Counted from the stretch's first letter, positions 27,064-43,312 are shown. The stretch: 64,000 nt of DNA from Myxococcota bacterium (GCA_965140415.1 OZ223209.1:4960001-5024000), one strand, 5' to 3'. Notes: a model not told the origin generated them from the letters alone. Made by a program: numbers and translations.

Positions 27064-28089
27064 GTGATAGTAAAAAAAGATACGGCAACAAATACCGCCG
27101 CCGCTCACGTGCTCGGATTCGATGGCGGTGGAACGAAATCGATTTGTGTGATCGCCCAGGCGGATGGCACCGTGAAAGGTGTGGGACGCTCCGATTGCAC
27201 CAACTTTCAAGGCGTAGGCGTCGAAGCGGCAAAACAGGAAGTAGCCAGGGCTATCGAACTAGCATTGAAGGACGCAAAGCTGAGGCCGGATCAGATTGCC
27301 ACTGCCGCTTTCGGTATCGCCGGAGCGGATCGTGACGAAGATTTCGAAACCGTTGCAGGCTATGTGGATGTCTCTCAGCCTGCCCCACATTGGATGCTGG
27401 TCAACGATACCACCATCGCACTACGTGCGGGAACCAGCGATGGCATCGGCGTGGCGATGGTTTGCGGCACCGGTTCCAATTGCATCGGATTCAATGCCGC
27501 AGGCAAGCAGGCAAAAGTCGGTGGTCTGGGACACCTTACAGGCGACGTCGGCGGCGGTGAGGATATTGTAGAAAAAGCGATCATTGCAAGCCTCAAAGCG
27601 GAAGATGGACGCGCTCCCAAAACGATCCTAGGGCAACGATTGGCTCAGGCCATGGGGCTGAAAAAGCTGGAGGATGTAATCGTCTTCACCTATGCCGACA
27701 ACTTCCAGCCCGTCAATTTCGGTCAATATTCCACGCTGGTCTTCAAATGCGCCGCAGAAGGCGACCGCGTTGCCCAGCGCTTACTGGAAAGAATCGGACG
27801 GGAACAGGCTCACAGTGTCGTCACGGCATGTAAGCGACTCTTCAAAAAGGACGAGACCTTCCCCGTCGTGCTGGGCGGCTCCATCATGCAGAAATCCAAT
27901 CCGCCTTATTTTGCAGACGCCATCAAACAAGCCGTCGGCAAACGCTATCCCAATGCCAGCGTACACAAACTGACCAGCGATCCCGTAATCGGAGCGGTCG
28001 GCTTTGCGCTGGATCTGCTTCACGGTAAGGCGGGACGAAATCGCATGGCAAAGCTGAAACGCAGCTACAAGCCTTATCAAACAAGTTGA
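27064..28089 (+). CDS. BadF/BadG/BcrA/BcrD ATPase family, N-acetylglucosamine-kinase-like sugar kinase
   Basis: GFDGGGTKS, GIAGAD, ND, CGTGSN, VGGLG-x-x-x-GD, LGGSI. Confidence 0.85.
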   Translation: MIVKKDTATNTAAAHVLGFDGGGTKSICVIAQADGTVKGVGRSDCTNFQGVGVEAAKQEVARAIELALKDAKLRPDQIATAAFGIAGADRDEDFETVAGYVDVSQPAPHWMLVNDTTIALRAGTSDGIGVAMVCGTGSNCIGFNAAGKQAKVGGLGHLTGDVGGGEDIVEKAIIASLKAEDGRAPKTILGQRLAQAMGLKKLEDVIVFTYADNFQPVNFGQYSTLVFKCAAEGDRVAQRLLERIGREQAHSVVTACKRLFKKDETFPVVLGGSIMQKSNPPYFADAIKQAVGKRYPNASVHKLTSDPVIGAVGFALDLLHGKAGRNRMAKLKRSYKPYQTS

Positions 28090-30076: not shown

Positions 30077-33000
30077 TTAAAAGAGAATCTCGGACTCTTG
30101 CGAAAGTTCCGTGATCGTATGGTCCAGATCCAGGTCCATATGAAAACAGGTATACTTTCCCGCTTCGCTTTCCACAAGCAGGCGGCCTTCGTGCTCGCGC
30201 ATGATCCCATGGCTGACCGACAGGCCCAGACCGGTTCCGACTCCACGCGGCTTGGTGGTAAAGAAAGGATCGAAAATCCTGCCAAGATTCTCGGTATCGA
30301 TTCCCATGCCGTTATCTCGCACACTGGTACGAAGCCAGCGAATGCCGTCTTCTTCCAGGGTTTGAGCTGAGATATGGATGATCTTGTCCTCGTGGTAGCT
30401 TGGGAAACGTTCGTTCAACGCATCCGCAGCATTCGTAACCAAGTTCATCAGCACCTGCTGGATTTGCTGGTTACGACAAACCACTTCCGGTAGATTTGGC
30501 GGGATCTCCGTTTTCAAGGTGATCTGGTGTTTGCGTAACAACGCCCGAATCAAAGATAAGGTATTATCCACCAGTGTTTTGATATTCGCAGGGCTGTGAA
30601 TTTCCTGTTCCTGTCTGGCGAACGCCAGCAGGTTTCTGACGATCATCGCGACCCGCTTGCTTTCTCCGATGATTTCGTTCGAAAAATCGTATTGACGGGT
30701 ATCTTGAACACTTTCATCGAAAATCAACTGGGCATAGTTCATGATACTGTTGATCGGATTGTTGATTTCATGCGCCACACCGGAAGCCAAGGTTCCGATC
30801 GATTCCAGCTTTTGTTGTTGTCGCAGTTGAGCATCGTGGCGGCTTCGTTCCTCTTCTTCCTTGAGCCGGTCTGTAACATCCCGCAATGTCGCCAGGATCA
30901 GGCCATCCGGCAATATACTGACGCTGATTTCCGCAAATAACTCCCGACCGGAACGATGAAGCACCTGACGCACCACCAGCGTGTGAAGTCCTTTCCGCCA
31001 GTCATCGAAATCTTCTTTTACAAGATAAGCATACTCATCATGGACCATGTTGAAGATGGATAGCCCAATGAATTCTTCCTGGGAATACCCGAAAATCTCC
31101 AGCACTTTCTTATTGGCTTCGACGATCCTATAGTCATTATCGATCAAAGCAATCCCGTCGCTGGACTGCTCCATCAGCATGCGGTAGCGCCCTTCGCTTT
31201 CCCGAAGCACTTCCTCGGCCTGACGACGTTTGGTAATGTCGTGCAACACGATTAAAAGCTGGTCGCGGCCTCCAATCACCGTGCGACGCATGTTGATTTC
31301 CGCCCAGATATGTTTGCCATTCTTCGACTTGATCAACCACTCGAAGATCTGTGGAACGCCATTAACGGCTGCATCGACGAAGTGGCGGGCTTTTCGAATG
31401 GTGTGCGGGGGATGCTCTTCCAGCAAATCCAAGAAGGCGAGTTTGCGGGCTTCTTCCTTGGTGTACTCCAACAGATCGAGAACTTTACGGTTGGTGTCCA
31501 GAATCCGCTGCCCATCCAACATCGCTACGATCAGGGCGTCATTACTGGCATTATAGATAGCCCGATAATTGGCTTCCGATTCCACTAAAGCAGTTTCAAC
31601 TTCTTTTCTGACTGTGATGTCTTTGCTGATGGTCAACAGGTGAGGAGCGCCCTGAATCATGATCGGTCTGCCCGACATCAGCGCTTGTCGACTCTGCCCG
31701 TTTTTTGCGCGGAAAGTCGCTTCGAAATCGTCGATGTACCCCTTGGTGCGCATGAGGTAGATCATTTGATCGCGTTTTTCGGGATTTTCCCAGAACTTCA
31801 GCTTTGTAACATCCTTCCCAATCACTTCCTCTCGACTATAGCCGGTAACTTCCGTGAATCCCGGATTTACGTCAACGAAAAATCCCTGGTAGTTGGAAAT
31901 GATGATCGCATCGGGAGTCGCCTCGAAAACCGACTGAAAGTGTTGCCGGCTTATTTCCAGTTCAGATTCATCCTGCTTTCGCGCCTTATAAGCCATGATC
32001 GCTTCGCTGGCCGTACGCAGAATCTGAAGGTCTTCTTGTTTCCATTGTTTTGAATAGCCGGTCGTATCGAAACCTAAAAACCCCCAGCGCTTATTCCTGA
32101 GCCACAGCGGAATCGCCAGTACCGCCAGAATATTCTGAGAGAGCAGCAACTCGCGTTCGTAACAGGCTTCCTCCGGCAGACTCCGGGTATCTTCAATCAG
32201 GACCATTCCCTTTTCGGAGATCTGTTTGTACCACCAATTGTCCTGCTTGACCTTCAAATCCTGCATGATGCCGGTTTTGACTTCGACACCTGGAGAGCAC
32301 CATTGATACAGGCTGCTCATTCGCATACCGTCATCGTGAAGTCGTACCAGATGCGCCCGGCTTGCTTGAACGACTTTGCCGAGAATCTCCAGAATTTCGT
32401 TCATATCGACATCACCGGAGCCTGCCAACAATGAAGAAACATTGGAAACGGCGTGTTCTATTTTCAGCCGATGATTCAAATCGTCGACCGCTTGTTTCCA
32501 GTCGGTGATGTCACGCCCGTAACAATTGATGTGCTTCAGGTCGCTACCGTCTTCCAGGTAATGAAAACGCAGGGTAACGCGGGTGTAGTGAATTTTACCT
32601 TTGGTGTCGATCAACCGCAGGTCCAGGTGTCCGTTTTCCTTATGTTGTGCCTTCAATTCGTCGATACTAACATCCGCCAGATTGCGATCTTCCGGTGCGA
32701 TGAGTTCGAAGACACTGGTACCGATTAAATCCGTTTCCAACCTTCCCAGCATGGAACGGGAATTCGGGTTGATATAGAGAATTTCACCATTGCGCGTCAG
32801 GTTGGCAAAGAGATCGCTGGTACCCTCGACGAGTTCCCGGTATTGCGCCTCGCGCTCGGTGAGTTTTTTCTCGGATACGTCAAGTTTTCGGAAATAGAAA
32901 TGCAGAACAAGAAACAGCACGATAGCGCTTGCAAGAATAAAGAACCAGCCTTTGTAGGTCTGGGCTAGATGCAAACCGTCCAAGGTAGGGAAAAGAGAAT

Positions 33001-33082
33001 AGGCCAATTGATCCGAGAACAGAATCCACAATCCCCCTAAAACAATGTAAATAATCGCAATTCGAAAGGCCATAGAATACAA
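30077..33082 (-). CDS. Membrane-anchored multi-PAS/GAF sensor histidine kinase
   Basis: Two TM helices, four PAS-PAC repeats, a GAF domain, H-box GVAHEINNP, and N/G boxes (DNGMGI, FDPFFTTK, GTGLGL). Confidence 0.92.
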   Translation of the reverse strand: MYSMAFRIAIIYIVLGGLWILFSDQLAYSLFPTLDGLHLAQTYKGWFFILASAIVLFLVLHFYFRKLDVSEKKLTEREAQYRELVEGTSDLFANLTRNGEILYINPNSRSMLGRLETDLIGTSVFELIAPEDRNLADVSIDELKAQHKENGHLDLRLIDTKGKIHYTRVTLRFHYLEDGSDLKHINCYGRDITDWKQAVDDLNHRLKIEHAVSNVSSLLAGSGDVDMNEILEILGKVVQASRAHLVRLHDDGMRMSSLYQWCSPGVEVKTGIMQDLKVKQDNWWYKQISEKGMVLIEDTRSLPEEACYERELLLSQNILAVLAIPLWLRNKRWGFLGFDTTGYSKQWKQEDLQILRTASEAIMAYKARKQDESELEISRQHFQSVFEATPDAIIISNYQGFFVDVNPGFTEVTGYSREEVIGKDVTKLKFWENPEKRDQMIYLMRTKGYIDDFEATFRAKNGQSRQALMSGRPIMIQGAPHLLTISKDITVRKEVETALVESEANYRAIYNASNDALIVAMLDGQRILDTNRKVLDLLEYTKEEARKLAFLDLLEEHPPHTIRKARHFVDAAVNGVPQIFEWLIKSKNGKHIWAEINMRRTVIGGRDQLLIVLHDITKRRQAEEVLRESEGRYRMLMEQSSDGIALIDNDYRIVEANKKVLEIFGYSQEEFIGLSIFNMVHDEYAYLVKEDFDDWRKGLHTLVVRQVLHRSGRELFAEISVSILPDGLILATLRDVTDRLKEEEERSRHDAQLRQQQKLESIGTLASGVAHEINNPINSIMNYAQLIFDESVQDTRQYDFSNEIIGESKRVAMIVRNLLAFARQEQEIHSPANIKTLVDNTLSLIRALLRKHQITLKTEIPPNLPEVVCRNQQIQQVLMNLVTNAADALNERFPSYHEDKIIHISAQTLEEDGIRWLRTSVRDNGMGIDTENLGRIFDPFFTTKPRGVGTGLGLSVSHGIMREHEGRLLVESEAGKYTCFHMDLDLDHTITELSQESEILF

Positions 33083-33291
33083 CCCAGAGAAATAGTGCCT
33101 CCCGTCTTGAGGAGGCGTTTACAACTTATTCGCATCATACCTGATGCCTGACGTTTGTTGTAGTTCAATTTCCAAGTCGTGACAAGTGGTTTTCTTGTAA
33201 GGATGACAGACCGACTGGCATGTTGTGTGATTGAGCGGATATCCCAAGTAACCTGGCGAACAAACCCAATCGATCTTTTAGCCGAAGCTTG

Positions 33292-33320
33292 TTGACTCTG
33301 TAACAGCGACCCGCTATGAT
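33292..33320 (+). promoter_or_regulatory. Sigma-70 promoter of the double-cubane reductase operon
   Basis: TTGACT-N17-TATGAT, implying a leader of about 200 nt before ATG 33527. Confidence 0.7.
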
Positions 33321-33361
33321 TCTCCCGGTGTCAATTCATATTTACCAAAGGAAGATGTGAA

Positions 33362-33466
33362 ATGAGCGATCGCATCATGGCATTAAGCCGCTCAAAAACC
33401 TGAACTGCGTTTCGGAAGCCCGTGGGGCTTCGACGCACACAAACTCGCCGGATTCTACCTGCCTGA
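33362..33466 (+). CDS. Putative Sec-containing leader peptide MSDRIMALSRSKT-U-TAFRKPVGLRRTQTRRILPA
   Basis: SD AAAGGA, ATG 33362, in-frame TGA 33401-33403 followed by a SECIS-like hairpin, second TGA 33464-33466 inside the anti-sequestrator arm. Confidence 0.55.
33406..33437 (+). promoter_or_regulatory. Bacterial SECIS-like hairpin
   Basis: UGCGU/ACGCA lower stem, GAAGCCC/GGGCUUC upper stem, apical loop GUG beginning 18 nt after the UGA. Confidence 0.55.
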
Positions 33467-33522
33467 TACATAACGACCTCCGGTCAGCAGGCGGGAGCAT
33501 CCGCCACTGCATGAAGGAGGAC
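33453..33522 (+). promoter_or_regulatory. Competing anti-sequestrator and SD-sequestrator helices
   Basis: 33477-33494 pairs with 33501-33520 (CCUCC/GGAGG, UCA/UGA, GCAG/CUGC, GCGG/CCGC), hiding the SD. Alternatively 33453-33466 pairs with 33484-33496. Confidence 0.6.
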
Positions 33523-33526
33523 ATTC

Positions 33527-34807
33527 ATGGCCACGGATTATCGACCAATGTGGACCGAACTGGGCTTGGACCTGGAAAAGCACGATGCACTGCTAAACGT
33601 ACTTGGGGATGCTTACCAAAGTCTTTTCATGACCCAGCAGAATCGTCCGGAATCGATGGGATATTTCGATTTCGTAATGAGTGAGGTACACGGATTACGC
33701 ATCCAGGAATTGATGGAAGCCAAGGCTGCCGGACGACTGGTGATCGGCTCGTTCTGCACCTTCGTGCCGGAAGAACTGATTCTGGCGGTGGATGGCGTTT
33801 CCGTCGGATTGTGTGCGGGTGCCGAGTTCGGCACGGAAGCAGCCGAGCGCTTTTTGCCACGCAACACCTGCGCACTGATTAAAAGCGCTTTCGGTTTCGT
33901 TCAGGAACGGGTTTGCCCTTACATCGCCGCCAGCGACTTGATCGTGGGAGAAAACACCTGCGACGGCAAGAAGAAATCCTACGAACAGTTCAAAGACATG
34001 GTGAAGGCTTTCTATGCGATGGATCTTCCGCAAACCAAGAGCGCGGCGGGCCGCACTTTGTTGCAGGCCGAATACGAACGCTTCGCCAAGGAACTGGAGC
34101 AGCGCTCGGGCAAGCAGATTACGACGGAAAGCCTGAAACGCGGAATCGAGATCGTCAACAACAAGCGTAAGGCCATGCATCGCTTGACCAAGCTGCGCCA
34201 GGCCAATCCGGCTCCGATTTCCGGTTTGGACGCCCTGCTGATCAATCAGGTGTTTTTCTATGACGATCCTCTGCGCTTTACCGATTCGGTCAACAAAGTT
34301 TGCGACGAATTAGAAGCACGCATCGAACAAAAACAAGGCGTAACCCCGGAAAACACACCGCGTCTGTTGGTATCCGGTTGCCCGATGGCGGTGCCGAACT
34401 GGAAGCTGCATTCGATCGTGCAGGAGGCCGGAGCGGTGGTAATCGGAGACGAATCCTGCGTAGGCGATCGAGGCACCCAGGTCTTGACCGATGATTCCGC
34501 CGATAGCGTGCAGGGACTGTTGGATGCCGTATGTGAACGCTATCTGAACATCGACTGCGCCATCTTCACACCCAATCCCACTCGGCTCGAACACGTGCAG
34601 CAATTGAATAAAGATGCCAAAGCGGACGGTGTTCTGCACTATTCGATACAGTTCTGCACGCCGTATCAGATGGAAGCGAACGTCTTTGAACCGGAGCTGG
34701 AAAATTCCGGTGTACCGACGTTGCGCATCGACACCGATTACAGCATGGAAGACGCCGAGCAGCTTCGCACACGCCTGGAAGCTTTCATCGAACGGATTAA
34801 AGGCTGA
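33527..34807 (+). CDS. Double-cubane cluster anaerobic reductase (2-hydroxyacyl-CoA dehydratase-like family)
   Basis: DYRPMWTELGLDLEKHD, FDFVMSEVHGLRI, GSFCTFVPEE, GLCAG, RNTCALIKS, ENTCDGKKK, GCPMAVPNWK, ESC, IDCAIFTPN, QFC, TDYS. Confidence 0.85.
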   Translation: MATDYRPMWTELGLDLEKHDALLNVLGDAYQSLFMTQQNRPESMGYFDFVMSEVHGLRIQELMEAKAAGRLVIGSFCTFVPEELILAVDGVSVGLCAGAEFGTEAAERFLPRNTCALIKSAFGFVQERVCPYIAASDLIVGENTCDGKKKSYEQFKDMVKAFYAMDLPQTKSAAGRTLLQAEYERFAKELEQRSGKQITTESLKRGIEIVNNKRKAMHRLTKLRQANPAPISGLDALLINQVFFYDDPLRFTDSVNKVCDELEARIEQKQGVTPENTPRLLVSGCPMAVPNWKLHSIVQEAGAVVIGDESCVGDRGTQVLTDDSADSVQGLLDAVCERYLNIDCAIFTPNPTRLEHVQQLNKDAKADGVLHYSIQFCTPYQMEANVFEPELENSGVPTLRIDTDYSMEDAEQLRTRLEAFIERIKG

Positions 34808-34809
34808 AT

Positions 34810-35565
34810 ATGAAAACGGCTGGAATCGATATCGGTTCGCGAACCGTGAAACTGGTGGTACTGGAAGATGGCGAAGTGATACTGCAACGTGTGGAATACA
34901 ATTCGCACGATCCGATTGCCATCTGTCGCGCGATGCTGGAAGAAGTGCAAACCGACAACCTGGTGGCAACCGGCTATGGCCGTCACCTGTTCGAGCAGTA
35001 CTGGTCCTGCAAAACCATTACAGAAATCAAGGCTGTAGCTTTGGGTGCACAAGCTCTGCATCCGGAGTGCCGCCAGATTCTGGATATCGGCGGTCAGGAT
35101 ACAAAGGTCGTAGAACTGATGGAAAACGGCTCGGTCGGCAAGTTTGAAATGAACGACAAATGCGCTGCCGGCACCGGGCGTTTTCTGGAAGTGATGGCGA
35201 CCGCCCTGGGTTACAGCATGGAAGATTTCGTATCGCAGGCAAACGAGGCTGAAGAAGCCAAAAAAATCAACGCGATGTGTACGGTTTTCGCCGAAAGTGA
35301 AGTCATTTCCATGGTCGCCCGTGGAATCCCACGCGAGCAACTGGCGTTGGGACTGCATCAGGCTGTCTCCAAACGCTCCCTGGCGATGCTGAGGCGACTG
35401 CGAGGTCGACACGACGTGCTGTTCTGCGGCGGCGCAGCACACAACTCCTGTCTGCACCGTTTACTTCAATCCACTGCAAAACGAACGATCACCGTTCCCG
35501 AACATCCTCAAACGGTGGCGGCATTGGGATGCGCCAGAGCTGCCATGGAACCATCATCAGCCTGA
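34810..35565 (+). CDS. ATP-dependent [4Fe-4S] activase (HgdC/BcrD-like)
   Basis: GIDIGSRTVK, ATGYGR, DIGGQDTK, MNDKCAAGTGRF and CTVFAESEVIS. Confidence 0.92.
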   Translation: MKTAGIDIGSRTVKLVVLEDGEVILQRVEYNSHDPIAICRAMLEEVQTDNLVATGYGRHLFEQYWSCKTITEIKAVALGAQALHPECRQILDIGGQDTKVVELMENGSVGKFEMNDKCAAGTGRFLEVMATALGYSMEDFVSQANEAEEAKKINAMCTVFAESEVISMVARGIPREQLALGLHQAVSKRSLAMLRRLRGRHDVLFCGGAAHNSCLHRLLQSTAKRTITVPEHPQTVAALGCARAAMEPSSA

Positions 35566-35827
35566 TCGAAACGAATCAAGCCTTACCATTTTTCCTTTCC
35601 GCCGGAGTCGAAAATGAATTCGATTCCGGCGGTTTCATGTTGTATTGGCAAAAGGGCAAGTCTATTTTGAACCGATACAACTTGAGCATTGCATTTTTCG
35701 GATCCCCTTATATAATGAGTCTGGGAAATATTTGTATTCAGCAAAACAAGGGAATTTCGGAAAAGGTCCGAAGTCTTTCGTCTGTTAGCTTACTAAGGGG
35801 TAAGTAGGATTGAGAAAGGGGTTGATT

Positions 35828-38800
35828 ATGCCATCGATTAGATATCTGCTGCTAGTGTGGATCATCGTTATGCTTTCCATATACGGGGTTGGATGCGGAG
35901 GCGATGACGATCCTCAAGAAGACGGAGACCTCTCCGAGGCTGAAAGCGATGCGACCCAGCCGGATGGAGACGACGATATGCCCGTCATTCCTCCCGATGG
36001 TGACACCGCAGACGGTGACACCGCAGACGGTGACACAGCAGATGGAGATACCGCTGACGGCGACCTGATCGATGGAGACAAAGTAGACGGAGACTGGATC
36101 GACGGCGATGGAACCGATGGGGACATGGTCGATGGCGATGGAAGCGACGGAGACTGGATCGACGGCGACTGGATTGACGGTGATGGCGAACAGTTTTGTA
36201 GCGGCTGCGAAGAATTCGCCGGAACCTATTGCGTAGCTGAAGCCACTGGGAGCAATTGCGATGCCTATCCGGTGGAAATGGTGAGTATCGAAGAAGACGA
36301 CGAAATCGAGTGCGGATACACGGTAACCGTCTTCATCACCGGCTACAGCCCTCAATCAGTCGATGTAGTCGGCTGTGATTTCCAGGACGAAAGCGTGCTT
36401 GGAGTGTGTTCGGTCAGCGTCGATCAGGGAGAGATCCTGGTGGATTGCTCCACCATTTGTTCCGCCGTACTGAATCAGGAAGCCTGCTTAACCGACGGCG
36501 ACGGTATCGACGGCGACTTTATTGACGGCGATGTCATCGACGGCGATGTAATTGATGGCGACGTGGTTGACGGCGATGTGATCGACGGCGACGTAATCGA
36601 TGGTGACATGATCGATGGCGATGTGATCGACGGCGACGTGATCGACGGCGATGTGATCGATGGCGATGTGATTGACGGCGATGTGATTGACGGCGACGTG
36701 ATTGATGGCGATATAATTGATGGCGATATAATTGAGTATCCCGCTCCTGCACCAGGCGACGTTATTTTCACGGAATTTCTGGCCAACACCACCGGCTCGG
36801 TTGCAGAGCAACTCGGCGAATGGATGGAAGTCGTCAACCTCACCAATGAAACCTTCGGGCTGGGCGGACTGAACCTTTGTGATGCCGTAGACGGGAATTG
36901 CGAAGTACTACCGGCGAATCTTGTGATCGGTCCGTATGAAGCTTTGATTTTTGCCGGTTCCGATGACTCCGGTGTAAATGGCGGATTGACAAATGTCGCT
37001 TATGACTTCGGATTCTCGCTAAACAACAGCGGCGACAAACTGCGCCTGATCGATGGTAGCCCGGCGGATGGTGTCTTGATCGATGAAGTGGATGCCTCCA
37101 CCTGGGATCAGATTGCCGGTGTTTCCTGGCAGCTTGACCCGGCGCATTTCGATGTTCTGGAAAACGACGATGCAAGTTATTGGTGCCTGGGATCCTTGCA
37201 ATACCTCGCAGACGGTCCTCACTACGGCACCCCCGGAACGATGAATGTCAGCTGTGAAATCGTCGATGGCGATGGTGTTGATGGCGACGTAATTGATGGC
37301 GACATGGTCGACGGTGATATCGTCGATGGTGATATCGTCGATGGTGATATCGTCGATGGCGATATGGTCGACGGCGACATGATCGATGGTGATATCGTCG
37401 ATGGTGATATTGTTGATGGCGACATGGTCGACGGTGATATTGTTGATGGCGACATCATTGATGGCGATGTCGTTGATGGTGACGTGGTCGACGGTGACAT
37501 GATCGACGGTGACATGATCGACGGAGATATGGTCGATGGTGATGTCATCGATGGCGATGTAGTGGATTGCTACGGCTACGGCGATTGCAATGCCGCCTGC
37601 ATCAATGCCGGATACGATTCCGGTGTGTGTGTAGACGCCATTCAAGGTTGTACCTGTAACTATGCAAGCTGCGAAGCTTATGTCTGTGGCACCTACTACG
37701 ACAACTGCTCCTGCGCGGCGGCGGACCCCTGCAACTGGCAGGGCGATGACTACTGTGATGATTTCTGCGCCCTGGTGTACCCGGACGATCACTTTGACGA
37801 CAGTGCCGACTGTTCGGTCGACGGTGATATTGTCGATGGTGATATGGTCGACGGCGACATCATTGATGGCGATGTCGTTGATGGTGACGTGGTGGACGGC
37901 GATGTTATTGATGGTGACATAATTGACGGTGACATAATTGACGGTGATGTCATCGATGGCGATGTGGTGGATTGCTACGGCTACGGCGATTGCAACGCCG
38001 CCTGCATCGATGCCGGATACGATTCCGGTGTGTGTGTAGACGCCATTCAAGGTTGTACCTGCAACTATGCAAGCTGCGAAGCTTATGTCTGTGGCACCTA
38101 CTACGACAACTGCTCCTGCGCGGCGGCGGACCCCTGCAACTGGCAGGGCGATGATTACTGTGACGATTTCTGCGCCCTGGTATACCCGGACGATCATTTT
38201 GACGACAGTGCCGACTGTTCGGTGGACGGCGATGTCATCGACGGTGACGTGGTGGATGGCGACATCGTAGACGGTGACATCATTGACGGCGATGTCGTGG
38301 ATGGCGATATCGTACCGCTGTCCGGTGAGAATTGCGGAAATGCCATTGCGATTACCGGTCTTCCTTACTCGGATACCGGTGAGATGGCGAACTACATGAA
38401 CGACGTCTTTTTCTCTACCAATGGTGAAAGCTGCACGGGCTACACCAACTATGGAAAAGATGTCCTCTACGCGGTGGAGTTGGAAGCCGGACAGATCCTG
38501 AATGCATCGCTGGATGCCAATTTCGATAGCGCCCTGTATCTCTTGAATAATTGCGTTAACGGCGAATTGCCTGCCGAAATGTGTGTGGAAGGTTCCGACA
38601 GCGGAAACCCGGAAACGCTTTCCGTGGAAATTCAAGACGCCGGCACCTACTACCTGGTGGTGGACTACTGGAACTCAAGCGGACCTTCTTCGGGAAGTTA
38701 CGAGTTGAGCGTCTGGACAGGCAGTGCAGACGGCGACGTCGTGGATGGTGACATCGGGCCGCTGTCCGGTGACAATTGCGGAAATGCAATCTCGATTACC

Positions 38801-41800
38801 GGTCTTCCTTACTCCGATACCGGCGAAATGGCAAACTACTTGAACGATGTCTTTTTCTCCTCCAACGATGAAAGCTGTACGGGTTACGTCAACAGCGGAA
38901 AAGATGTCATTTACGCGGTGGAACTGGAAGCCGGGCAGGCTCTGAATGCGTCACTTGATGCCGATTTCGACAGCGCCCTTTATCTGCTCAGCAACTGTTT
39001 GAACGGCGAATTAGCCTCTGAACTATGTGTTGAAGGTTCCGACAGCGGAAACCCGGAAACACTTTCCGTAGTCATTCAAAACGCTGGCACTTACTACCTC
39101 GTAGTGGATTACTGGAATTCCGGCGGACCATCTTCGGGAAGTTATGAACTGAGTGTTTGGTCGGGCAGCGTAGACGGCGACGTGATCGACGGTGACGTGA
39201 TCGACGGTGACGTGGTCGACGGTGACGTGATCGACGGTGACGTGGTCGACGGCGATGTGGTGGACGGCGATGTCGTTTCTCCTTTCTGTCCGGGCTACAC
39301 CGGAACGAGCGATTGCTGCCGCCTGGACAACTCCTGCGACTGGGCGGAAGACGGCTGGTGCGATTGCGGCGGAACTTGCCCCTGGGATGTCGTAGATTGC
39401 AGCGTCGATGGTGACATTATCGACGGCGATGTGGTCGATGGCGATATGGTCGATGGAGATGTCATCGACGGTGACATGGTTGACGGCGATGTGATCGATG
39501 GCGACATTATCGACGGTGATGTACATCCTGATGACAACTATGAAGACAATGATTCTTTCGAAGAAGCCGTAGAGGGACCGCTTAGTATCACCCCGCTCTT
39601 CCTGGCCGACAACGACGACGATTATTTCTACTACGATGTCTGTCCGGGTGGCACCATCACCACGGACGTGTACTTCCTCCACGAGGATCTGGATATCGAT
39701 ATTATTCTTAGGGATTCCAGTAGCTCTGCCATTGGGTATGGAACGAGCAGTGATGACAATGAACACATTACCTGGATAAACAGCGGCGCAGAAACAGAAC
39801 GGGTCGTTCTTCAAATTGGACGTGCGGAAAGCGGTTGGGCAGAGTACATCCTGATGGTTACTATTGAGGATTGCGATGTTGATGGTGATGTGATCGATGG
39901 GGATGTGGTCGACGGTGATATTGAACCTGCATTGAACTGGGTACGACTATACCCCGACACGGTTCCCACCGCACGCTTCGGTCATAACATGGCCTATAAT
40001 CCGGATACCGGCAACACGCTGATGGCCTTTGGGCAAGGTAGCTATACAACCATGTACGAATGGGATGGTAGCAACTGGAATTCCGTGGTTCCAGCTCATC
40101 GTCCTACCGCATATCGATTCAACAGCATGGTTTATCACGAAGGGCTTGGAAAAATGGTGCTGTTCGGCGGCAATACCTGCTGCCCGAACGTATCCTACGC
40201 TGAAACCTGGCTTTTCGATGGAACGGACTGGGAACAGCTGATTACGGCGACCACACCGCCGGAGCGGCAAAATGCCGTGATGGCGTATGATTCCATCCGC
40301 GATGTCATTGTGATGCATGGCGGTTCCAACTACGACGACACCACCATTGTTGAGCTGAACGACACCTGGGAATTCGATGGAACCGACTGGAACCAGGTTG
40401 TCACAGACACAACGGGGCCAACCACAAACAGTGCCGCCATGGCATTCGATCCCATACTTGAGAAAATGGTCCTGGTGGATGGCACGGACACTTGGTTATA
40501 CGATGGAACAGACTGGGAAATGATTTCCCCGGCAACGGTCATTGGCCACCGCAGTTCGCCCGTATTGGCTTTTGATACCTGGCGTGGTGTAACGGTGCTG
40601 TTCGGCGGCAATTCCAGCTACGGCACGTTTGAGTTCGATGGCACGGACTGGACAGAAATCACCACGGAAGATTCACCACCTCTGACGTTAAACAATGGCT
40701 TCATGGTGTTCGATCCCATTGCGGGTCACATGTTGTTGTTCGGTGGTTCAGGTTGCGACTCCGGCTACTGTAACGAAACCTGGATCTACGGACCGGAAAG
40801 CATTGTAGACGGAGATGTCGTTGATGGTGATATTGTCGATGGAGACATTGTAGACGGCGACATCGTGGATGGTGATATTGTCGATGGAGACATTGTAGAC
40901 GGCGACGTGGTCGATGGTGACGTGATTGACGGCGACATTGTGGATGGCGACATGGTGGACGGTGATGTGGTAGATGGCGACGTGGTGGATGGCGATATTG
41001 TAGACGGTGATGTGGACAACAGTTGCATCGATGATTTGTATGAACCGAACGACAACGATGCGGAAGCAACGAGTGGCAACTGGTACGACTGGTCGGATCT
41101 GGTCATTTGCGGCGAGAACGAAGACTGGTTCGAGGTGTACATCGATCATTCCCATTACACCAATCATTATGCAGGCGATTCCACGATCGTCTACCTGTAC
41201 AATTCCAGCTTGACCCTGCTCGGCTCAACCGCTGACGATCCAGGCAGTTTCTTGAATGTTCAAGATTGCTTGCCTGCTGGAAACTACCTGTTGAAAGTAG
41301 TTTCAGCCACAGGAAGTGACGTTTCTAACTACTCTGTGTACATCGGAACATCTTCCTGCACGATTGACGGCGACATTGTAGATGGTGATGTGGTAGACGG
41401 AGATATCGTAGACGGTGATATCGTTGACGGAGACGTAGTGGATGGAGATGTCGTGGATTGCAGCGGATCTTGTAATCTCGGCGAATCCGACTTCTGTTCC
41501 GATGCAGACACCATCTGCACCTGCGAATTCAGCAAAGCTGTTTCAGGCTCCTGGACTGCATACAATTGCAATGACATCTGTGAATTTGGGGCACTGGGAT
41601 GCGGGTTTGATCCGGACACAGGAGCCTATTGCATGTGCAATGAACCCGATGGAGATGTGGTCGACGGCGACATCGTAGACGGCGACATTGTAGACGGTGA
41701 CATCGTGGATGGTGACATTGTGGATGGTGACATTGTTGATGGTGATGTCGTGGATGGAGATATTGTAGACGGCGATGCAGGACCTTGCCCAGAATGTGCG

Positions 41801-43312
41801 GACTTCCCCGGCCAGTATTGCATTTTGTCGCAGGAGGGCGCCGGTTGTGCTGCCTTAGGCGTACAGTATATTGTGGTTTCGGAAGATCCGGATACGGAAT
41901 GTGGATTCATTGTCACTTCCGTTCTGGATGGCCAGCCCAATGCAGACATACCAATGCAAGGATGTACCTTCGTCAACACACCATTCGGTGATTTCTGTAC
42001 GATTACCAGTCTTCCGGATGGAACTTTTACTGCGGATTGTTCCGGTATGTGCTCCTATGTTTTCAGTAAAGATGTCTGCGTTCCGGACGGCGATGTCGTC
42101 GATGGTGATGTCGCAGACGGTGATGTAGATACCACACTGGGTTTGCCCACAGAAGCGGGACAGTTGGTTATTACTGAAATCATGAATAACCCCAGTGTCA
42201 TTTCGGATACGTTTGGGGAATGGTTTGAAGTCTACAATCCAACATCCTTAACCTTCGATCTGAATGGCTTGTCAATCCAAGACGCTGGTTCCGACAACGT
42301 TACCGTAGAAGGCAGCCTGCTGATCGGTCCGCATGAATATCTGGTATTTGGAAACAACAGCGACACCGGAACCAATTCCGGCGTTGTTTTAGACTACGCC
42401 TACGCACCTGATGCATTTTATTTAGGTAACAGCGACGACGAAATCCACCTATATAGCGGGGATACATTAATCGATGCAGTCGAATACGATAACGGAGCAA
42501 CATTCCCGGACCCGATCGGACATTCGATGTATCTCGATGCTCTGAAAATTGGAGATGACAACAACGACGGAACGAATTGGTGCCAGGACTTGGAAAACCC
42601 ATACGGCGTTGGCGATAATTATGGAACGCCGGGAGTCGTCAACCCGCGCTGCCCCATGGGTGAAATCCTATGTGGTGAAGGCATAGCGATAGACCTGATC
42701 AATGGAACGAGAATGTGGGAAAACTACTCGCAATCTCATGCCGGCTTCGTGGGCCCTGAAAGTGTATACGCATTTACCGTACCGGATTGTCCGTTCCAAC
42801 TTTCCGTGGATGCCACTTTAATTACCAGTGGCTTCCCGGCAAGTTTGTTGGTACTGGAAAAGTTGGATCCCGGTACATTTATGGCTGGTACAGATTTGCA
42901 GGTGGCGGATCCTACGTTGAATCTGTATCTTACGCCGGGAGAGACCTATTATTTTGTCATTGACACCCCAATTGTCGACGTTTCCTTCTCATTGCAGCTC
43001 AGTATTGCATGTAATTGCCTTCCACCAACCTATCGCGTTCATTATTTTTCGGGTTGGACACCGCCCTACATGCACTACAGCCCCGATCTTGGTACAACAT
43101 GGACAGACCTTCCGGGAGCAGCCATGACCGCTGAAGGTAATGGTTGGTGGTTCAAGGATGTATATAGTTCCCTCGTCCTTCCATTGACTTTTGTTTTCAA
43201 TGATGGTGCCGACAACTGGGACAATCCTCCCGGAGGCGGAAACTACACGACCCTGGACCCGGAAGTCTGGGTGAAAGATGGAGTTATCTACACGTCGATG
43301 CCTGTTCGCTAG
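35828..43312 (+). CDS. Giant modular surface lipoprotein: DGD-x-x spacers, two lamin-tail-like domains, duplicated Cys-rich and PPC-like modules, kelch-like propeller, C-terminal CBM25/26-like domain
   Basis: Lipobox GVGC; more than 100 DGD-x-x units; lamin-tail motifs IFTEFLAN/ITEIMNNP...GEWxEVxN...GTPG; kelch-like FGG/ETWxFDG repeats; C-terminal YMHY...WT...PG...M...FVFNDG...WDN. Confidence 0.88.
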   Translation: MPSIRYLLLVWIIVMLSIYGVGCGGDDDPQEDGDLSEAESDATQPDGDDDMPVIPPDGDTADGDTADGDTADGDTADGDLIDGDKVDGDWIDGDGTDGDMVDGDGSDGDWIDGDWIDGDGEQFCSGCEEFAGTYCVAEATGSNCDAYPVEMVSIEEDDEIECGYTVTVFITGYSPQSVDVVGCDFQDESVLGVCSVSVDQGEILVDCSTICSAVLNQEACLTDGDGIDGDFIDGDVIDGDVIDGDVVDGDVIDGDVIDGDMIDGDVIDGDVIDGDVIDGDVIDGDVIDGDVIDGDIIDGDIIEYPAPAPGDVIFTEFLANTTGSVAEQLGEWMEVVNLTNETFGLGGLNLCDAVDGNCEVLPANLVIGPYEALIFAGSDDSGVNGGLTNVAYDFGFSLNNSGDKLRLIDGSPADGVLIDEVDASTWDQIAGVSWQLDPAHFDVLENDDASYWCLGSLQYLADGPHYGTPGTMNVSCEIVDGDGVDGDVIDGDMVDGDIVDGDIVDGDIVDGDMVDGDMIDGDIVDGDIVDGDMVDGDIVDGDIIDGDVVDGDVVDGDMIDGDMIDGDMVDGDVIDGDVVDCYGYGDCNAACINAGYDSGVCVDAIQGCTCNYASCEAYVCGTYYDNCSCAAADPCNWQGDDYCDDFCALVYPDDHFDDSADCSVDGDIVDGDMVDGDIIDGDVVDGDVVDGDVIDGDIIDGDIIDGDVIDGDVVDCYGYGDCNAACIDAGYDSGVCVDAIQGCTCNYASCEAYVCGTYYDNCSCAAADPCNWQGDDYCDDFCALVYPDDHFDDSADCSVDGDVIDGDVVDGDIVDGDIIDGDVVDGDIVPLSGENCGNAIAITGLPYSDTGEMANYMNDVFFSTNGESCTGYTNYGKDVLYAVELEAGQILNASLDANFDSALYLLNNCVNGELPAEMCVEGSDSGNPETLSVEIQDAGTYYLVVDYWNSSGPSSGSYELSVWTGSADGDVVDGDIGPLSGDNCGNAISITGLPYSDTGEMANYLNDVFFSSNDESCTGYVNSGKDVIYAVELEAGQALNASLDADFDSALYLLSNCLNGELASELCVEGSDSGNPETLSVVIQNAGTYYLVVDYWNSGGPSSGSYELSVWSGSVDGDVIDGDVIDGDVVDGDVIDGDVVDGDVVDGDVVSPFCPGYTGTSDCCRLDNSCDWAEDGWCDCGGTCPWDVVDCSVDGDIIDGDVVDGDMVDGDVIDGDMVDGDVIDGDIIDGDVHPDDNYEDNDSFEEAVEGPLSITPLFLADNDDDYFYYDVCPGGTITTDVYFLHEDLDIDIILRDSSSSAIGYGTSSDDNEHITWINSGAETERVVLQIGRAESGWAEYILMVTIEDCDVDGDVIDGDVVDGDIEPALNWVRLYPDTVPTARFGHNMAYNPDTGNTLMAFGQGSYTTMYEWDGSNWNSVVPAHRPTAYRFNSMVYHEGLGKMVLFGGNTCCPNVSYAETWLFDGTDWEQLITATTPPERQNAVMAYDSIRDVIVMHGGSNYDDTTIVELNDTWEFDGTDWNQVVTDTTGPTTNSAAMAFDPILEKMVLVDGTDTWLYDGTDWEMISPATVIGHRSSPVLAFDTWRGVTVLFGGNSSYGTFEFDGTDWTEITTEDSPPLTLNNGFMVFDPIAGHMLLFGGSGCDSGYCNETWIYGPESIVDGDVVDGDIVDGDIVDGDIVDGDIVDGDIVDGDVVDGDVIDGDIVDGDMVDGDVVDGDVVDGDIVDGDVDNSCIDDLYEPNDNDAEATSGNWYDWSDLVICGENEDWFEVYIDHSHYTNHYAGDSTIVYLYNSSLTLLGSTADDPGSFLNVQDCLPAGNYLLKVVSATGSDVSNYSVYIGTSSCTIDGDIVDGDVVDGDIVDGDIVDGDVVDGDVVDCSGSCNLGESDFCSDADTICTCEFSKAVSGSWTAYNCNDICEFGALGCGFDPDTGAYCMCNEPDGDVVDGDIVDGDIVDGDIVDGDIVDGDIVDGDVVDGDIVDGDAGPCPECADFPGQYCILSQEGAGCAALGVQYIVVSEDPDTECGFIVTSVLDGQPNADIPMQGCTFVNTPFGDFCTITSLPDGTFTADCSGMCSYVFSKDVCVPDGDVVDGDVADGDVDTTLGLPTEAGQLVITEIMNNPSVISDTFGEWFEVYNPTSLTFDLNGLSIQDAGSDNVTVEGSLLIGPHEYLVFGNNSDTGTNSGVVLDYAYAPDAFYLGNSDDEIHLYSGDTLIDAVEYDNGATFPDPIGHSMYLDALKIGDDNNDGTNWCQDLENPYGVGDNYGTPGVVNPRCPMGEILCGEGIAIDLINGTRMWENYSQSHAGFVGPESVYAFTVPDCPFQLSVDATLITSGFPASLLVLEKLDPGTFMAGTDLQVADPTLNLYLTPGETYYFVIDTPIVDVSFSLQLSIACNCLPPTYRVHYFSGWTPPYMHYSPDLGTTWTDLPGAAMTAEGNGWWFKDVYSSLVLPLTFVFNDGADNWDNPPGGGNYTTLDPEVWVKDGVIYTSMPVR
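37562..38225 (+). repeat. Near-identical duplicated Cys-rich module (CYGYGDC...ADCSV x2)
   Basis: Two copies of about 85 aa (~37562-37820 and ~37967-38225) that differ by one residue by eye (N/D), separated by a DGD tract. Confidence 0.85.
38315..39170 (+). repeat. Duplicated PPC-like module (x2)
   Basis: PLSGxNCGNAI...YYLVVDYWNSxGPSSGSYELSVW occurs twice. Confidence 0.8.

Follow-up and report, generated by a model that had tools for sequence, protein, structure and literature searches.

A candidate UGA-dependent leader switch connecting a double-cubane reductase operon of a Myxococcota bacterium with selenocysteine decoding

Why should a compact two-gene operon be separated from its promoter by a leader of about 200 nt, and what could be the role, within this leader, of a short open reading frame that ends in UGA directly in front of a stem-loop? 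These questions are raised by a locus found in a 64,000-nt stretch of DNA from a Myxococcota bacterium (GCA_965140415.1 OZ223209.1:4960001-5024000; this whole stretch is called the window below), where the operon 33292-35632 encodes a double-cubane-cluster anaerobic reductase and its putative activase. A preliminary description had interpreted the leader as a translational attenuator that senses selenium by means of selenocysteine (Sec). None of the computational outcomes named there as refuting was obtained and, as far as sequence analysis goes, our results support the view that the element works by ribosome-mediated attenuation with SelB/SECIS (Sec insertion sequence) recoding as the sensor, tying double-cubane reductases to a selenium-responsive regulon. 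That the leader is a sensor of Sec decoding, whatever its polarity, seems very probable to us, and our preferred reading, which we hold with rather more confidence than doubt, is that of a ribosome-mediated attenuator that turns the operon on when Sec is scarce.

A leader peptide ended by UGA and a SECIS-like hairpin

The elements on which this reading is built are, in the first part of the leader, the following:

33347-33403 (+): leader upstream open reading frame (uORF) with the Shine-Dalgarno (SD) motif AAGGAAG; ATG at 33362, 13 codons (MSDRIMALSRSKT) and UGA at 33401-33403
33406-33437 (+): SECIS-like hairpin; lower stem 33406-11/33432-37, 3-nt bulge, upper 7-bp stem 33415-21/33425-31 and loop GUG at 33422-24
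33404-33466 (+): read-through extension of the uORF, 20 codons, ending at a second stop (UGA 33464-66)

The preliminary description had claimed a leader ORF at 33362 with its own SD and an in-frame UGA as codon 14 (33401), a hairpin with a GU-containing loop 18 nt after this UGA, and a second UGA at 33464, where read-through would end, and all of these are present. The hairpin folds as had been described, with the loop GUG; it comprises 13 bp, and its upper stem begins 11 nt past the UGA. As in bacterial SECIS elements, an in-frame UGA is thus found directly 5′ of a stem-loop that lies about 11 nt on and carries a G (here GU) in its apical loop, and, as in leader-peptide attenuators, there is a short leader ORF with a start codon and an SD-like motif, from which its translation is predicted. 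By contrast, the peptide encoded after the UGA is not conserved and is read in different frames, whereas the homologues of a selenoprotein would be expected to align through the Sec position. On this evidence, the leader element is SECIS-like in form and would not be part of a selenoenzyme gene.

The fold of the whole leader has a z of -2.14 relative to shuffled sequences, and it is because of its conservation in relatives, rather than from the sequence of the window alone, that we hold the leader to be more than a product of chance. A search of genome contigs gave 570 hits, of which the best 80 were used; these come from Myxococcota, Desulfobacterota-type, Spirochaetota, Acidobacteriota, Verrucomicrobiota and other genomes, the nearest records being Myxococcota metagenome-assembled genomes (MAGs), and 84 loci were scanned mechanically for the succession of uORF, UGA and hairpin. 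The succession was observed upstream of the reductase in 38 of the 84 loci, while control scans with UAA or UAG in place of UGA gave 2/84 each. Among 41 related genomes, the window genome counted, reductase orthologues with 65-75% identity occur in eight, and in all eight loci a short uORF is closed by UGA and followed, after about 11 nt, by a hairpin; a helix that pairs an anti-SD with the SD is present as well. The conservation of uORF, UGA and hairpin upstream of orthologous genes, which the preliminary description had proposed as a check, consequently extends from the close relatives (8/8) to many phyla.

For a closer view, 36 leaders were curated. Of the loci found by the scan, L024 and L031 (second UGA two codons on) and the doubtful L037 and L091 were dropped, and two others, L065 and L072, were included after inspection by eye. 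All 36 have UGA as their first stop, and the next in-frame stop follows 54-78 nt past it in 35, which is the case for only 3 and 2 of the 36 in frames +1 and +2. This second stop may be TGA (22 leaders), TAA (7) or TAG (7). A second stop that is held in frame whatever its codon, behind a UGA that is constant, is expected if ribosomes sometimes read the first UGA and the point where they end matters. Additionally, an in-frame start is found in 46 of 46 leaders (ATG in 44), with uORFs of 7-24 codons and an SD-like motif in 35. The last residues of the uORF are conserved within clades through synonymous codons; for instance, the peptides end in [RK][KR][TS]-UGA near the window genome and in F[VI]PL-x-UGA in Syntrophorhabdus-, Syntrophus- and Leptospirales-type genomes, where synonymous codon changes are also seen.

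The hairpin is conserved in a different manner. Its covariation, proposed earlier as a check, was observed: in an alignment fitted to a model, which favours structure, 88.3% of the cells are paired and 5 of the 6 pairs show compensatory changes, a result reached by 0 of 500 shuffles. RNAalifold recovered 5-6 pairs from plain MAFFT alignments, in which the hairpin is out of register because its loop has 3 nt in some sequences and 4 nt in others, so structures were supplied by hand. The gap between UGA and stem varies from 7 to 12 nt across the leaders, and the loop G is invariant in the 36-sequence alignment. As the hairpin is translated in different frames among the orthologues (KPVGL in one, EARGAS in another), it must be conserved as RNA, and the read-through peptide is not conserved.

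These observations bear on two rival explanations. It could be proposed, firstly, that the uORF and its extension are a gene for a small selenoprotein of about 34 aa that acts with the reductase, with no regulator involved. The frame is indeed open up to a conserved stop, and its N-terminal part is conserved within clades. Nevertheless, no conservation at the protein level is seen past the UGA, the hairpin being read in different frames; the extension overlaps conserved alternative RNA helices; and the same element precedes unrelated operons (for both, see below). We find this explanation scarcely credible. Secondly, the hairpin could be an operator that binds SelB without translation of the uORF, SelB altering the downstream fold or the stability of the mRNA. 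The SECIS architecture of the hairpin would agree with this, and there is a precedent in the work of Thanbichler and Bock from 2002: the 5′ untranslated region (UTR) of E. coli selAB reportedly contains a SECIS-like element, without a UGA-ended uORF, where SelB is said to block initiation at the adjacent start site. An operator of this kind does not account, however, for a hairpin that is in every case preceded by a short ORF ending in an in-frame UGA, with a start in 46/46 and mostly with an SD-like motif, for the in-frame second stop of any codon at 54-78 nt in 35 of 36 leaders, or for leader-peptide ends kept through synonymous changes, and the hairpin lies about 90 nt from the SD to be regulated. 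We therefore regard it as very improbable. A further candidate, in which the uORF would be an N-terminal, Sec-containing extension of the reductase, was rejected, the frame of the uORF relative to the main ORF being 0, 1, 1, 2, 2, 0, 2 and 2 in eight close loci.

A covariance model of the uORF end, the UGA and the hairpin, called R1, recovers 35 of the 36 training leaders and adds 2 new copies in the 84 loci. Some reductase loci have leaders of other kinds. A second class, missed by R1, is formed by L038, L046, L061, L066, L076, L086 and L092, whose uORFs end in [FS]GFT-UGA; a hairpin such as CUAACCGGGUUUGUUAG follows 14-17 nt on, and the in-frame second stop lies at a variable distance of 18-78 nt. 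In L024 and L031, which are Cloacimonadota-type MAGs, the uORF ends in UGC-UGA-ARA-UGA about 130 nt upstream of the reductase, a hairpin being located 16 nt downstream of the first UGA and 10 nt downstream of the second. Reductase loci of Smithella/Syntrophaceae-type genomes (L032, L034, L040, L073 and L075) are devoid of a UGA leader and have another conserved upstream block, ..TTATATTCCTTTTATTCATTGGCG.., in common, which suggests that a different control element may operate there.

Sec machinery and the operons behind the leader

Of the Sec machinery that a sensor of this kind presupposes, three components were found in the window genome, namely a tRNA-Sec (69.5 bits), SelB (wing-3 domain, 45.1 bits) about 3 kb away from it and two SelD (393 and 356 bits); three selenoprotein genes are also present. 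One of the SelD matches (C1:1066875-1067798) lies inside an open frame of 734 aa, possibly a fusion. The selenoprotein genes, in which an in-frame UGA falls inside a Pfam domain, are the following:

C1:5909792 (-): FdhA-like molybdoenzyme, in-frame UGA
C1:5462897 (-): peroxiredoxin, in-frame UGA
C1:5851864 (-): FlpD/MvhD, in-frame UGA

Their SECIS elements, in the same order, lie 12, 10 and 13 nt after the UGA and have 7-bp stems with loops GUC, GGUC and GGC. With its 7-bp stem, 11-nt gap and GUG loop, the leader hairpin is thus of the same build as the SECIS hairpins of its own genome. In the genomes of the relatives, SelB was found in 28 of the 32 that bear the leader (from the best 80 of 570), and 2 more have tRNA-Sec and SelA; among the 41 relatives, it occurs in 7 of 8 that have the reductase and in 15 of the remaining 33. 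In one carrier (G023:C7, L017), about 2 kb separate SelB (C7:43401-43535) from the reductase gene that bears the leader (C7:40032-41303).

Which other genes carry the leader is informative with respect to what it may respond to. R1 was searched in the window genome, in 33 carrier genomes and in two samples of 151 genomes each, one from the phylum of G109 and one from Myxococcota. In the window genome, it gave the copy in the window and two weak matches at 19.1 and 17.5 bits; an ad hoc pattern scan of the same genome for uORF, UGA and hairpin gave 14 candidates, most of which are probably noise. All 5 matches in the Myxococcota sample are reductase leaders. Elsewhere, the leader was found in front of the following genes:

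5 copies: before a YedE family putative selenium transporter (TIGR04112, 416-494 bits)
2 copies: before YedF (TIGR03527, 195 and 201 bits)
1 copy: before a weaker YedF-like gene (42.5 bits, cut-off 110) and a molybdoenzyme
1 copy: before a second double-cubane paralogue with a cysteine-desulfurase/Sec-lyase-like gene and YedF (the same copy as that of the 201-bit YedF)
1 copy: before an FdhA-like gene with Cys where the FdhA of the window genome has Sec (NNIDHCARVCH)
1 copy: before an HdrA2-like gene with MvhD, with Cys at the Sec position

In two of these cases, L141 (G109:C97) and L145 (G072:C68), a remnant of the 5′ end of the reductase gene (GLDL..HDA) remains between the leader and the Cys-type FdhA or the HdrA with Cys-type MvhD. 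Such remnants suggest that the leader moved as a module, and it looks as though recombination took it to new operons. In L142 (G109:C160, minus strand, near 2977), the hairpin and the FIPLG end are intact and UAA replaces UGA; judged by this replacement, it is a natural locked variant, from which no read-through would be expected.

An association of double-cubane genes with selenium-utilisation genes, which the preliminary description had mentioned, is also seen around the reductase itself. A YedF-like gene lies within 3 kb of it in 10 of 37 leader-bearing loci and in 9 of 47 others, and a Sec-lyase-like gene in 9 of 37 and 5 of 47, respectively; the association is also reported by Lin et al. 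2015 and Haft 2022. In G064:C54 (L041), leader, reductase, activase, SelD (C54:13969-14883) and a Sec-lyase-like gene are on one strand, with SelD directly after the activase by coordinates.

The genes behind the leader comprise an uptake transporter, selenium-trafficking proteins and Cys isoenzymes, and it is because of this composition that we favour a switch that is on when Sec is scarce. Where such genes have been measured, they rise on selenium starvation: yedE mRNA increases by 5.28 log2 in Methanococcus maripaludis (PMC11097638), and the fdhFCys transcript increases under selenium limitation in Treponema primitia (PMC3892789). With YedE, YedF, Sec-lyase-like and Cys-isoenzyme operons all placed behind this leader, the reductase operon is probably part of a selenium-starvation response, and it perhaps mobilises selenium for SelD. 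A broader proposal, which we make tentatively and would not be surprised to see fail, is that many anaerobes (Myxococcota, Desulfobacterota, Spirochaetota and other phyla) run a selenium-starvation regulon by means of this UGA/SelB leader switch, of which the double-cubane reductase and its activase would be members because they reduce a refractory selenium pool for SelD.

How the switch might work, and in which direction

Downstream of the second stop, the leader has the means to form two structures that exclude each other:

33449-33503 (+): anti-sequestrator helix (2:3); 33449-33465 pairs with 33488-33503 in 15 bp, present in the minimum-free-energy fold
33477-33520 (+): SD sequestrator; anti-SD CCUCC (33477-81) pairs with SD GGAGG (33516-20) around an inner hairpin (33490-95/33500-05)

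The anti-sequestrator contains the first two nucleotides (UG) of the second stop and shares sequence with each arm of the inner hairpin. The preliminary description was right that such a competing helix exists, but not in its register, as the best one is 33449-33465/33488-33503 instead of 33453-66/33484-96. The sequestrator between CCUCC and GGAGG at 33477-33520, which had also been claimed, forms in the fold when blocking of the RNA extends to the second stop.

In our preferred reading, ribosomes would translate the 13-codon uORF and reach UGA 33401 with the SECIS-type hairpin 11 nt ahead. If SelB·GTP·Sec-tRNA(Sec) is available, Sec would be inserted and the ribosome would go on for 20 codons to the stop at 33464, where it would unwind the 5′ arm of the anti-sequestrator (33449-65). 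The 3′ partner that is freed in this way could then fold the inner hairpin, CCUCC would pair with the SD of the reductase gene and the operon would be off. By contrast, when Sec-tRNA is scarce, RF2 would terminate translation at the first UGA and the anti-sequestrator, formed co-transcriptionally, would persist, keeping the SD open for the synthesis of reductase and activase. The layout of low-GC relatives is the same and ends in a hairpin with a U-rich tract; there, the read-out would probably be transcription termination.

Folding of the window leader is consistent with this sequence of events. In the free leader, the competing helix wins and the probability that the SD is unpaired is 0.91, whereas it falls to 0.00-0.01 when the RNA is blocked up to 0 to 9 nt past the second stop; with 12 nt blocked past this stop, the anti-SD is covered and the SD is open again (0.88). 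The two helices are also conserved, as the model requires. In 13 GC-rich leaders, that of the window included, helix 2:3 has 79.9% of its cells paired, compared with at most 52% when the arms are slid, and shows 6 compensatory pairs, while the inner helix of the sequestrator (3:4) has 83.3% of its cells paired. The leaders consequently have what is typical of leader-peptide attenuators, namely conserved exclusive helices, one of them overlapping the terminal part of the leader ORF. Within the sequestrator, about 73% of the region 2 partners are paired. In 11 low-GC leaders, the CCUCC:GGAGG pairing is invariant. It is from the regulon and from the folding of the window leader that we infer a polarity in which the operon would be on when Sec is scarce.

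Several observations weigh against this reading, most of them related to how the orthologous leaders fold. The polarity proposed in the preliminary description is reproduced by constrained folding for the window (0.91 free, 0.00 blocked) but not for most orthologues, in which the SD is closed in both states: at equilibrium, the median probability of an open SD is 0.01 for the free RNA and 0.03 with a ribosome at the first UGA, and it exceeds 0.5 in the free state in only 4 of 36 leaders. As equilibrium folds keep the SD closed in most orthologues, the on state would have to be kinetic, formed during transcription. When 12 nt are blocked past the second stop, the SD opens in 16 of the 36 leaders and closes in 1. 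In about 13 of 36 leaders (three of the 36 rows, with no distance, 29 nt and 44 nt, are not meaningful), the anti-SD begins at most 6 nt after the second stop, so that a terminating ribosome would cover it there. The complementarity of region 2 is moderately above that of shuffled sequences (median z of -1.2, with 14 of 35 below -1.64), and, when the transcripts are cut ahead of the 3′ arm, the share of the 5′ arm that pairs with region 2 averages 41% and is half or more in 11 of 35; L019, which has no second stop before the main gene, was excluded from these two counts. For the low-GC relatives, a simple scan for terminators made no call in the L097 leader and, in that of L146, picked out solely the SECIS-like hairpin. 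Gene content also contributes to this side. SelB fails to separate the two groups of genomes, since it is found in 28 of the 32 with the leader and in 37 of the 47 without it, and two genomes, G044 and G064, carry the leader and SelD, with tRNA-Sec, SelA and SelB searched for in both and none detected. These two may have lost Sec decoding, or their Sec gene cluster may be unassembled. G044 (= G001; locus L021/L015) belongs to the same family as the window genome, and its assembly has 3 contigs and is 94% complete; for tRNA-Sec, it gave no match above the cut-off.

The same sensor could in principle work with the opposite polarity. The SD would then be sequestered by default, a ribosome that reaches the second stop after Sec decoding would expose it by melting the foot of the sequestrator and the operon would be on with selenium, for instance if the enzyme or the pathway to which it belongs requires selenium. 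Much of what has just been described argues for this alternative, as the SD of most orthologues is closed in the free RNA (median probability of an open SD of 0.01), a 12-nt footprint past the second stop opens it in 16 of 36 leaders and closes it in 1, and the anti-SD starts at a median of about 8-9 nt after this stop, the distance being 6 nt or less in about 13 leaders. On the other hand, the leader heads YedE, Cys-type FdhA and MvhD, and, in the reports cited above, genes of this kind rise on selenium starvation; in the window, the SD is open in the free RNA (0.91) and closed when this is blocked to the second stop; the conserved helix 2:3 would have no role; and G044, which has the leader and no detectable Sec decoding genes, would have a silenced operon. 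We consequently consider the opposite polarity unlikely, although it deserves to be taken seriously, and continue to prefer a switch that is on when Sec is scarce.

It could also be argued that UGA and hairpin are unrelated to Sec, the leader being, for example, a sensor of RF2 or of termination efficiency, a site bound by some other protein, or a structured leader in which the uORF is incidental. Sec insertion at UGA 33401 is, after all, something that we infer, two carrier genomes are without detectable Sec decoding genes and no Rfam family names the element: Rfam covariance models gave no match at E ≤10 in 32900-33700 and none at E ≤0.1 in 12 related loci. By contrast, the stop is specifically UGA (38 of 84 loci, as compared with 2 and 2 for the other stops), the geometry of the hairpin equals that of the SECIS elements of the same genome, the regulon is made of selenium genes and Sec machinery is present in 30 of the 32 carrier genomes. 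An explanation unrelated to Sec has, in our opinion, only a small probability.

With regard to the read-out, the window has no features of an intrinsic terminator at this point, as no U-tract follows the hairpin (at most 3 U in 9 nt), while a U-rich tail (at least 6 U in 9 nt) follows it in 7 of 35 relatives, which are low-GC. The terminator reading for these relatives comes from this count of U, since the simple scan made no such call. In some low-GC leaders, a U-rich run stands after the SECIS-like hairpin itself (L146 at 1521-1539 on the minus strand, L045, L063 and L143), and the one in L146 was called terminator-like. This arrangement recalls the idea, proposed for T. primitia (PMC3892789), of a SECIS acting as a terminator.

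Relation to known systems and the rest of the operon

The proposed switch may be compared with diverse systems in which decoding of a particular codon determines expression. In trpL and hisL of E. coli, the position of the ribosome on the leader picks between exclusive helices, and charged tRNA is what is sensed. The leader described here resembles them in its short ORF and in exclusive helices that share one strand, and also in that a ribosome at the leader stop would mask region 2 and lead to the off structure. It differs in that the test codon would be a stop recoded by SelB and SECIS instead of a run of sense codons, in that failure to decode would result in termination and release rather than stalling, and in that the read-out in the window would be sequestration of the SD, with no U-tract. 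In prfB, which codes for RF2, a +1 frameshift site within the gene senses RF2. Termination at an in-frame UGA would compete with recoding in both cases, but here the recoding would depend on SelB/SECIS and take place in a separate leader. The SECIS of fdhF-type genes shares with the leader the in-frame UGA, the stem-loop about 11 nt on and the G/U apical loop; unlike in those genes, the element here is placed in a 13-codon uORF, the peptide past the UGA lacks conservation, and further downstream there are a conserved stop and a switch. As for the selAB element mentioned above, both would use a SECIS-type RNA for regulation and respond to the Sec-decoding complex, although in the present case the evidence points to translation through the UGA. 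We know of no other case in which the recoding of a stop by SelB and SECIS serves as a sensor rather than for building an enzyme. If our reading is correct, this would be the first natural attenuator for Sec, the 21st amino acid, and a candidate regulator for bacterial selenium homeostasis. Additionally, as the element is self-contained within about 170 nt, it might be used as a reporter of Sec-decoding capacity.

In published work, a related case is that of fdhFSec in T. primitia, where UGA and SECIS lie inside the enzyme gene, whose own transcript decreases when decoding is lost; a dedicated leader is not described in the passages concerned (PMC3892789). Failed decoding of a Sec UGA alters downstream expression there, as it would in our proposal. 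A link between double-cubane proteins and selenium has been noted before. In Haft 2022, 955 of 970 double-cubane proteins are from genomes with SelD, this co-occurrence is left unexplained and the double-cubane reductases are described as having no known physiological substrate; the word stem "regulat" is absent from the text. For their part, Lin et al. 2015 list a 2-hydroxyglutaryl-CoA dehydratase subunit and an activase among the STRING partners of YedE, YedF and DUF3343, propose a LysR-type regulator rather than an RNA, and describe the network that regulates selenium homeostasis as not understood. A review of prokaryotic selenoproteomes from 2026 makes no mention of "attenuat-", riboswitch, leader or sensor, and no description of a UGA/SECIS leader was found in a full-text literature search, which did not cover the supplementary tables of Haft and Lin. 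As the leader is common to YedE, YedF and Cys-isoenzyme operons, it provides the testable hypothesis that the double-cubane reductase is made under selenium starvation. If true, reduction of a selenium pool for SelD would be the first physiological role for this family of reductases.

The rest of the operon is organized as follows:

33292-33320 (+): sigma-70-type promoter TTGACT-17-TATGAT, 10/12 positions matching; consensus match only
33527-34807 (+): double-cubane-cluster anaerobic reductase, 426 aa (NF040772, 446.7 bits with a cut-off of 350; PF06050)
34810-35565 (+): BcrAD/BadFG-type ATPase activase, 251 aa (PF01869, 1.5e-45; TIGR00241, 224 bits)
35599-35632 (+): intrinsic-terminator-like hairpin closing the operon; 14-pair stem, then TTTCATGTTG

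The promoter claimed earlier at 33292-33320, which opens the leader of about 200 nt, is present with 10 of the 12 consensus positions. It is the sole promoter-like site in 32800-36000; as shuffled sequences have a mean of 2.6 such sites, it is not rare by itself. The cysteines of the reductase are arranged as C77-X18-C96-X18-C115-X29-C145-X165-C311-X32-C344-X32-C377, all seven being invariant in the eight orthologues, and two of the spacings are one residue shorter than in the motif quoted by Haft 2022. The activase gene begins 2 nt past the reductase stop, and an activase adjoins the reductase in 32 of 37 leader-bearing loci and in 41 of 47 others. Outside the operon, a gene for a PAS/GAF histidine kinase lies upstream on the opposite strand, and an open frame of 2500 aa (35810-43312, +) starts 180 nt beyond the operon terminator. 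Finally, the window contains a second ATPase of the BcrAD_BadFG family (341 aa; 27064-28089, +), located 5 kb upstream, which adjoins HhH-GPD repair and PI-PLC-like proteins.

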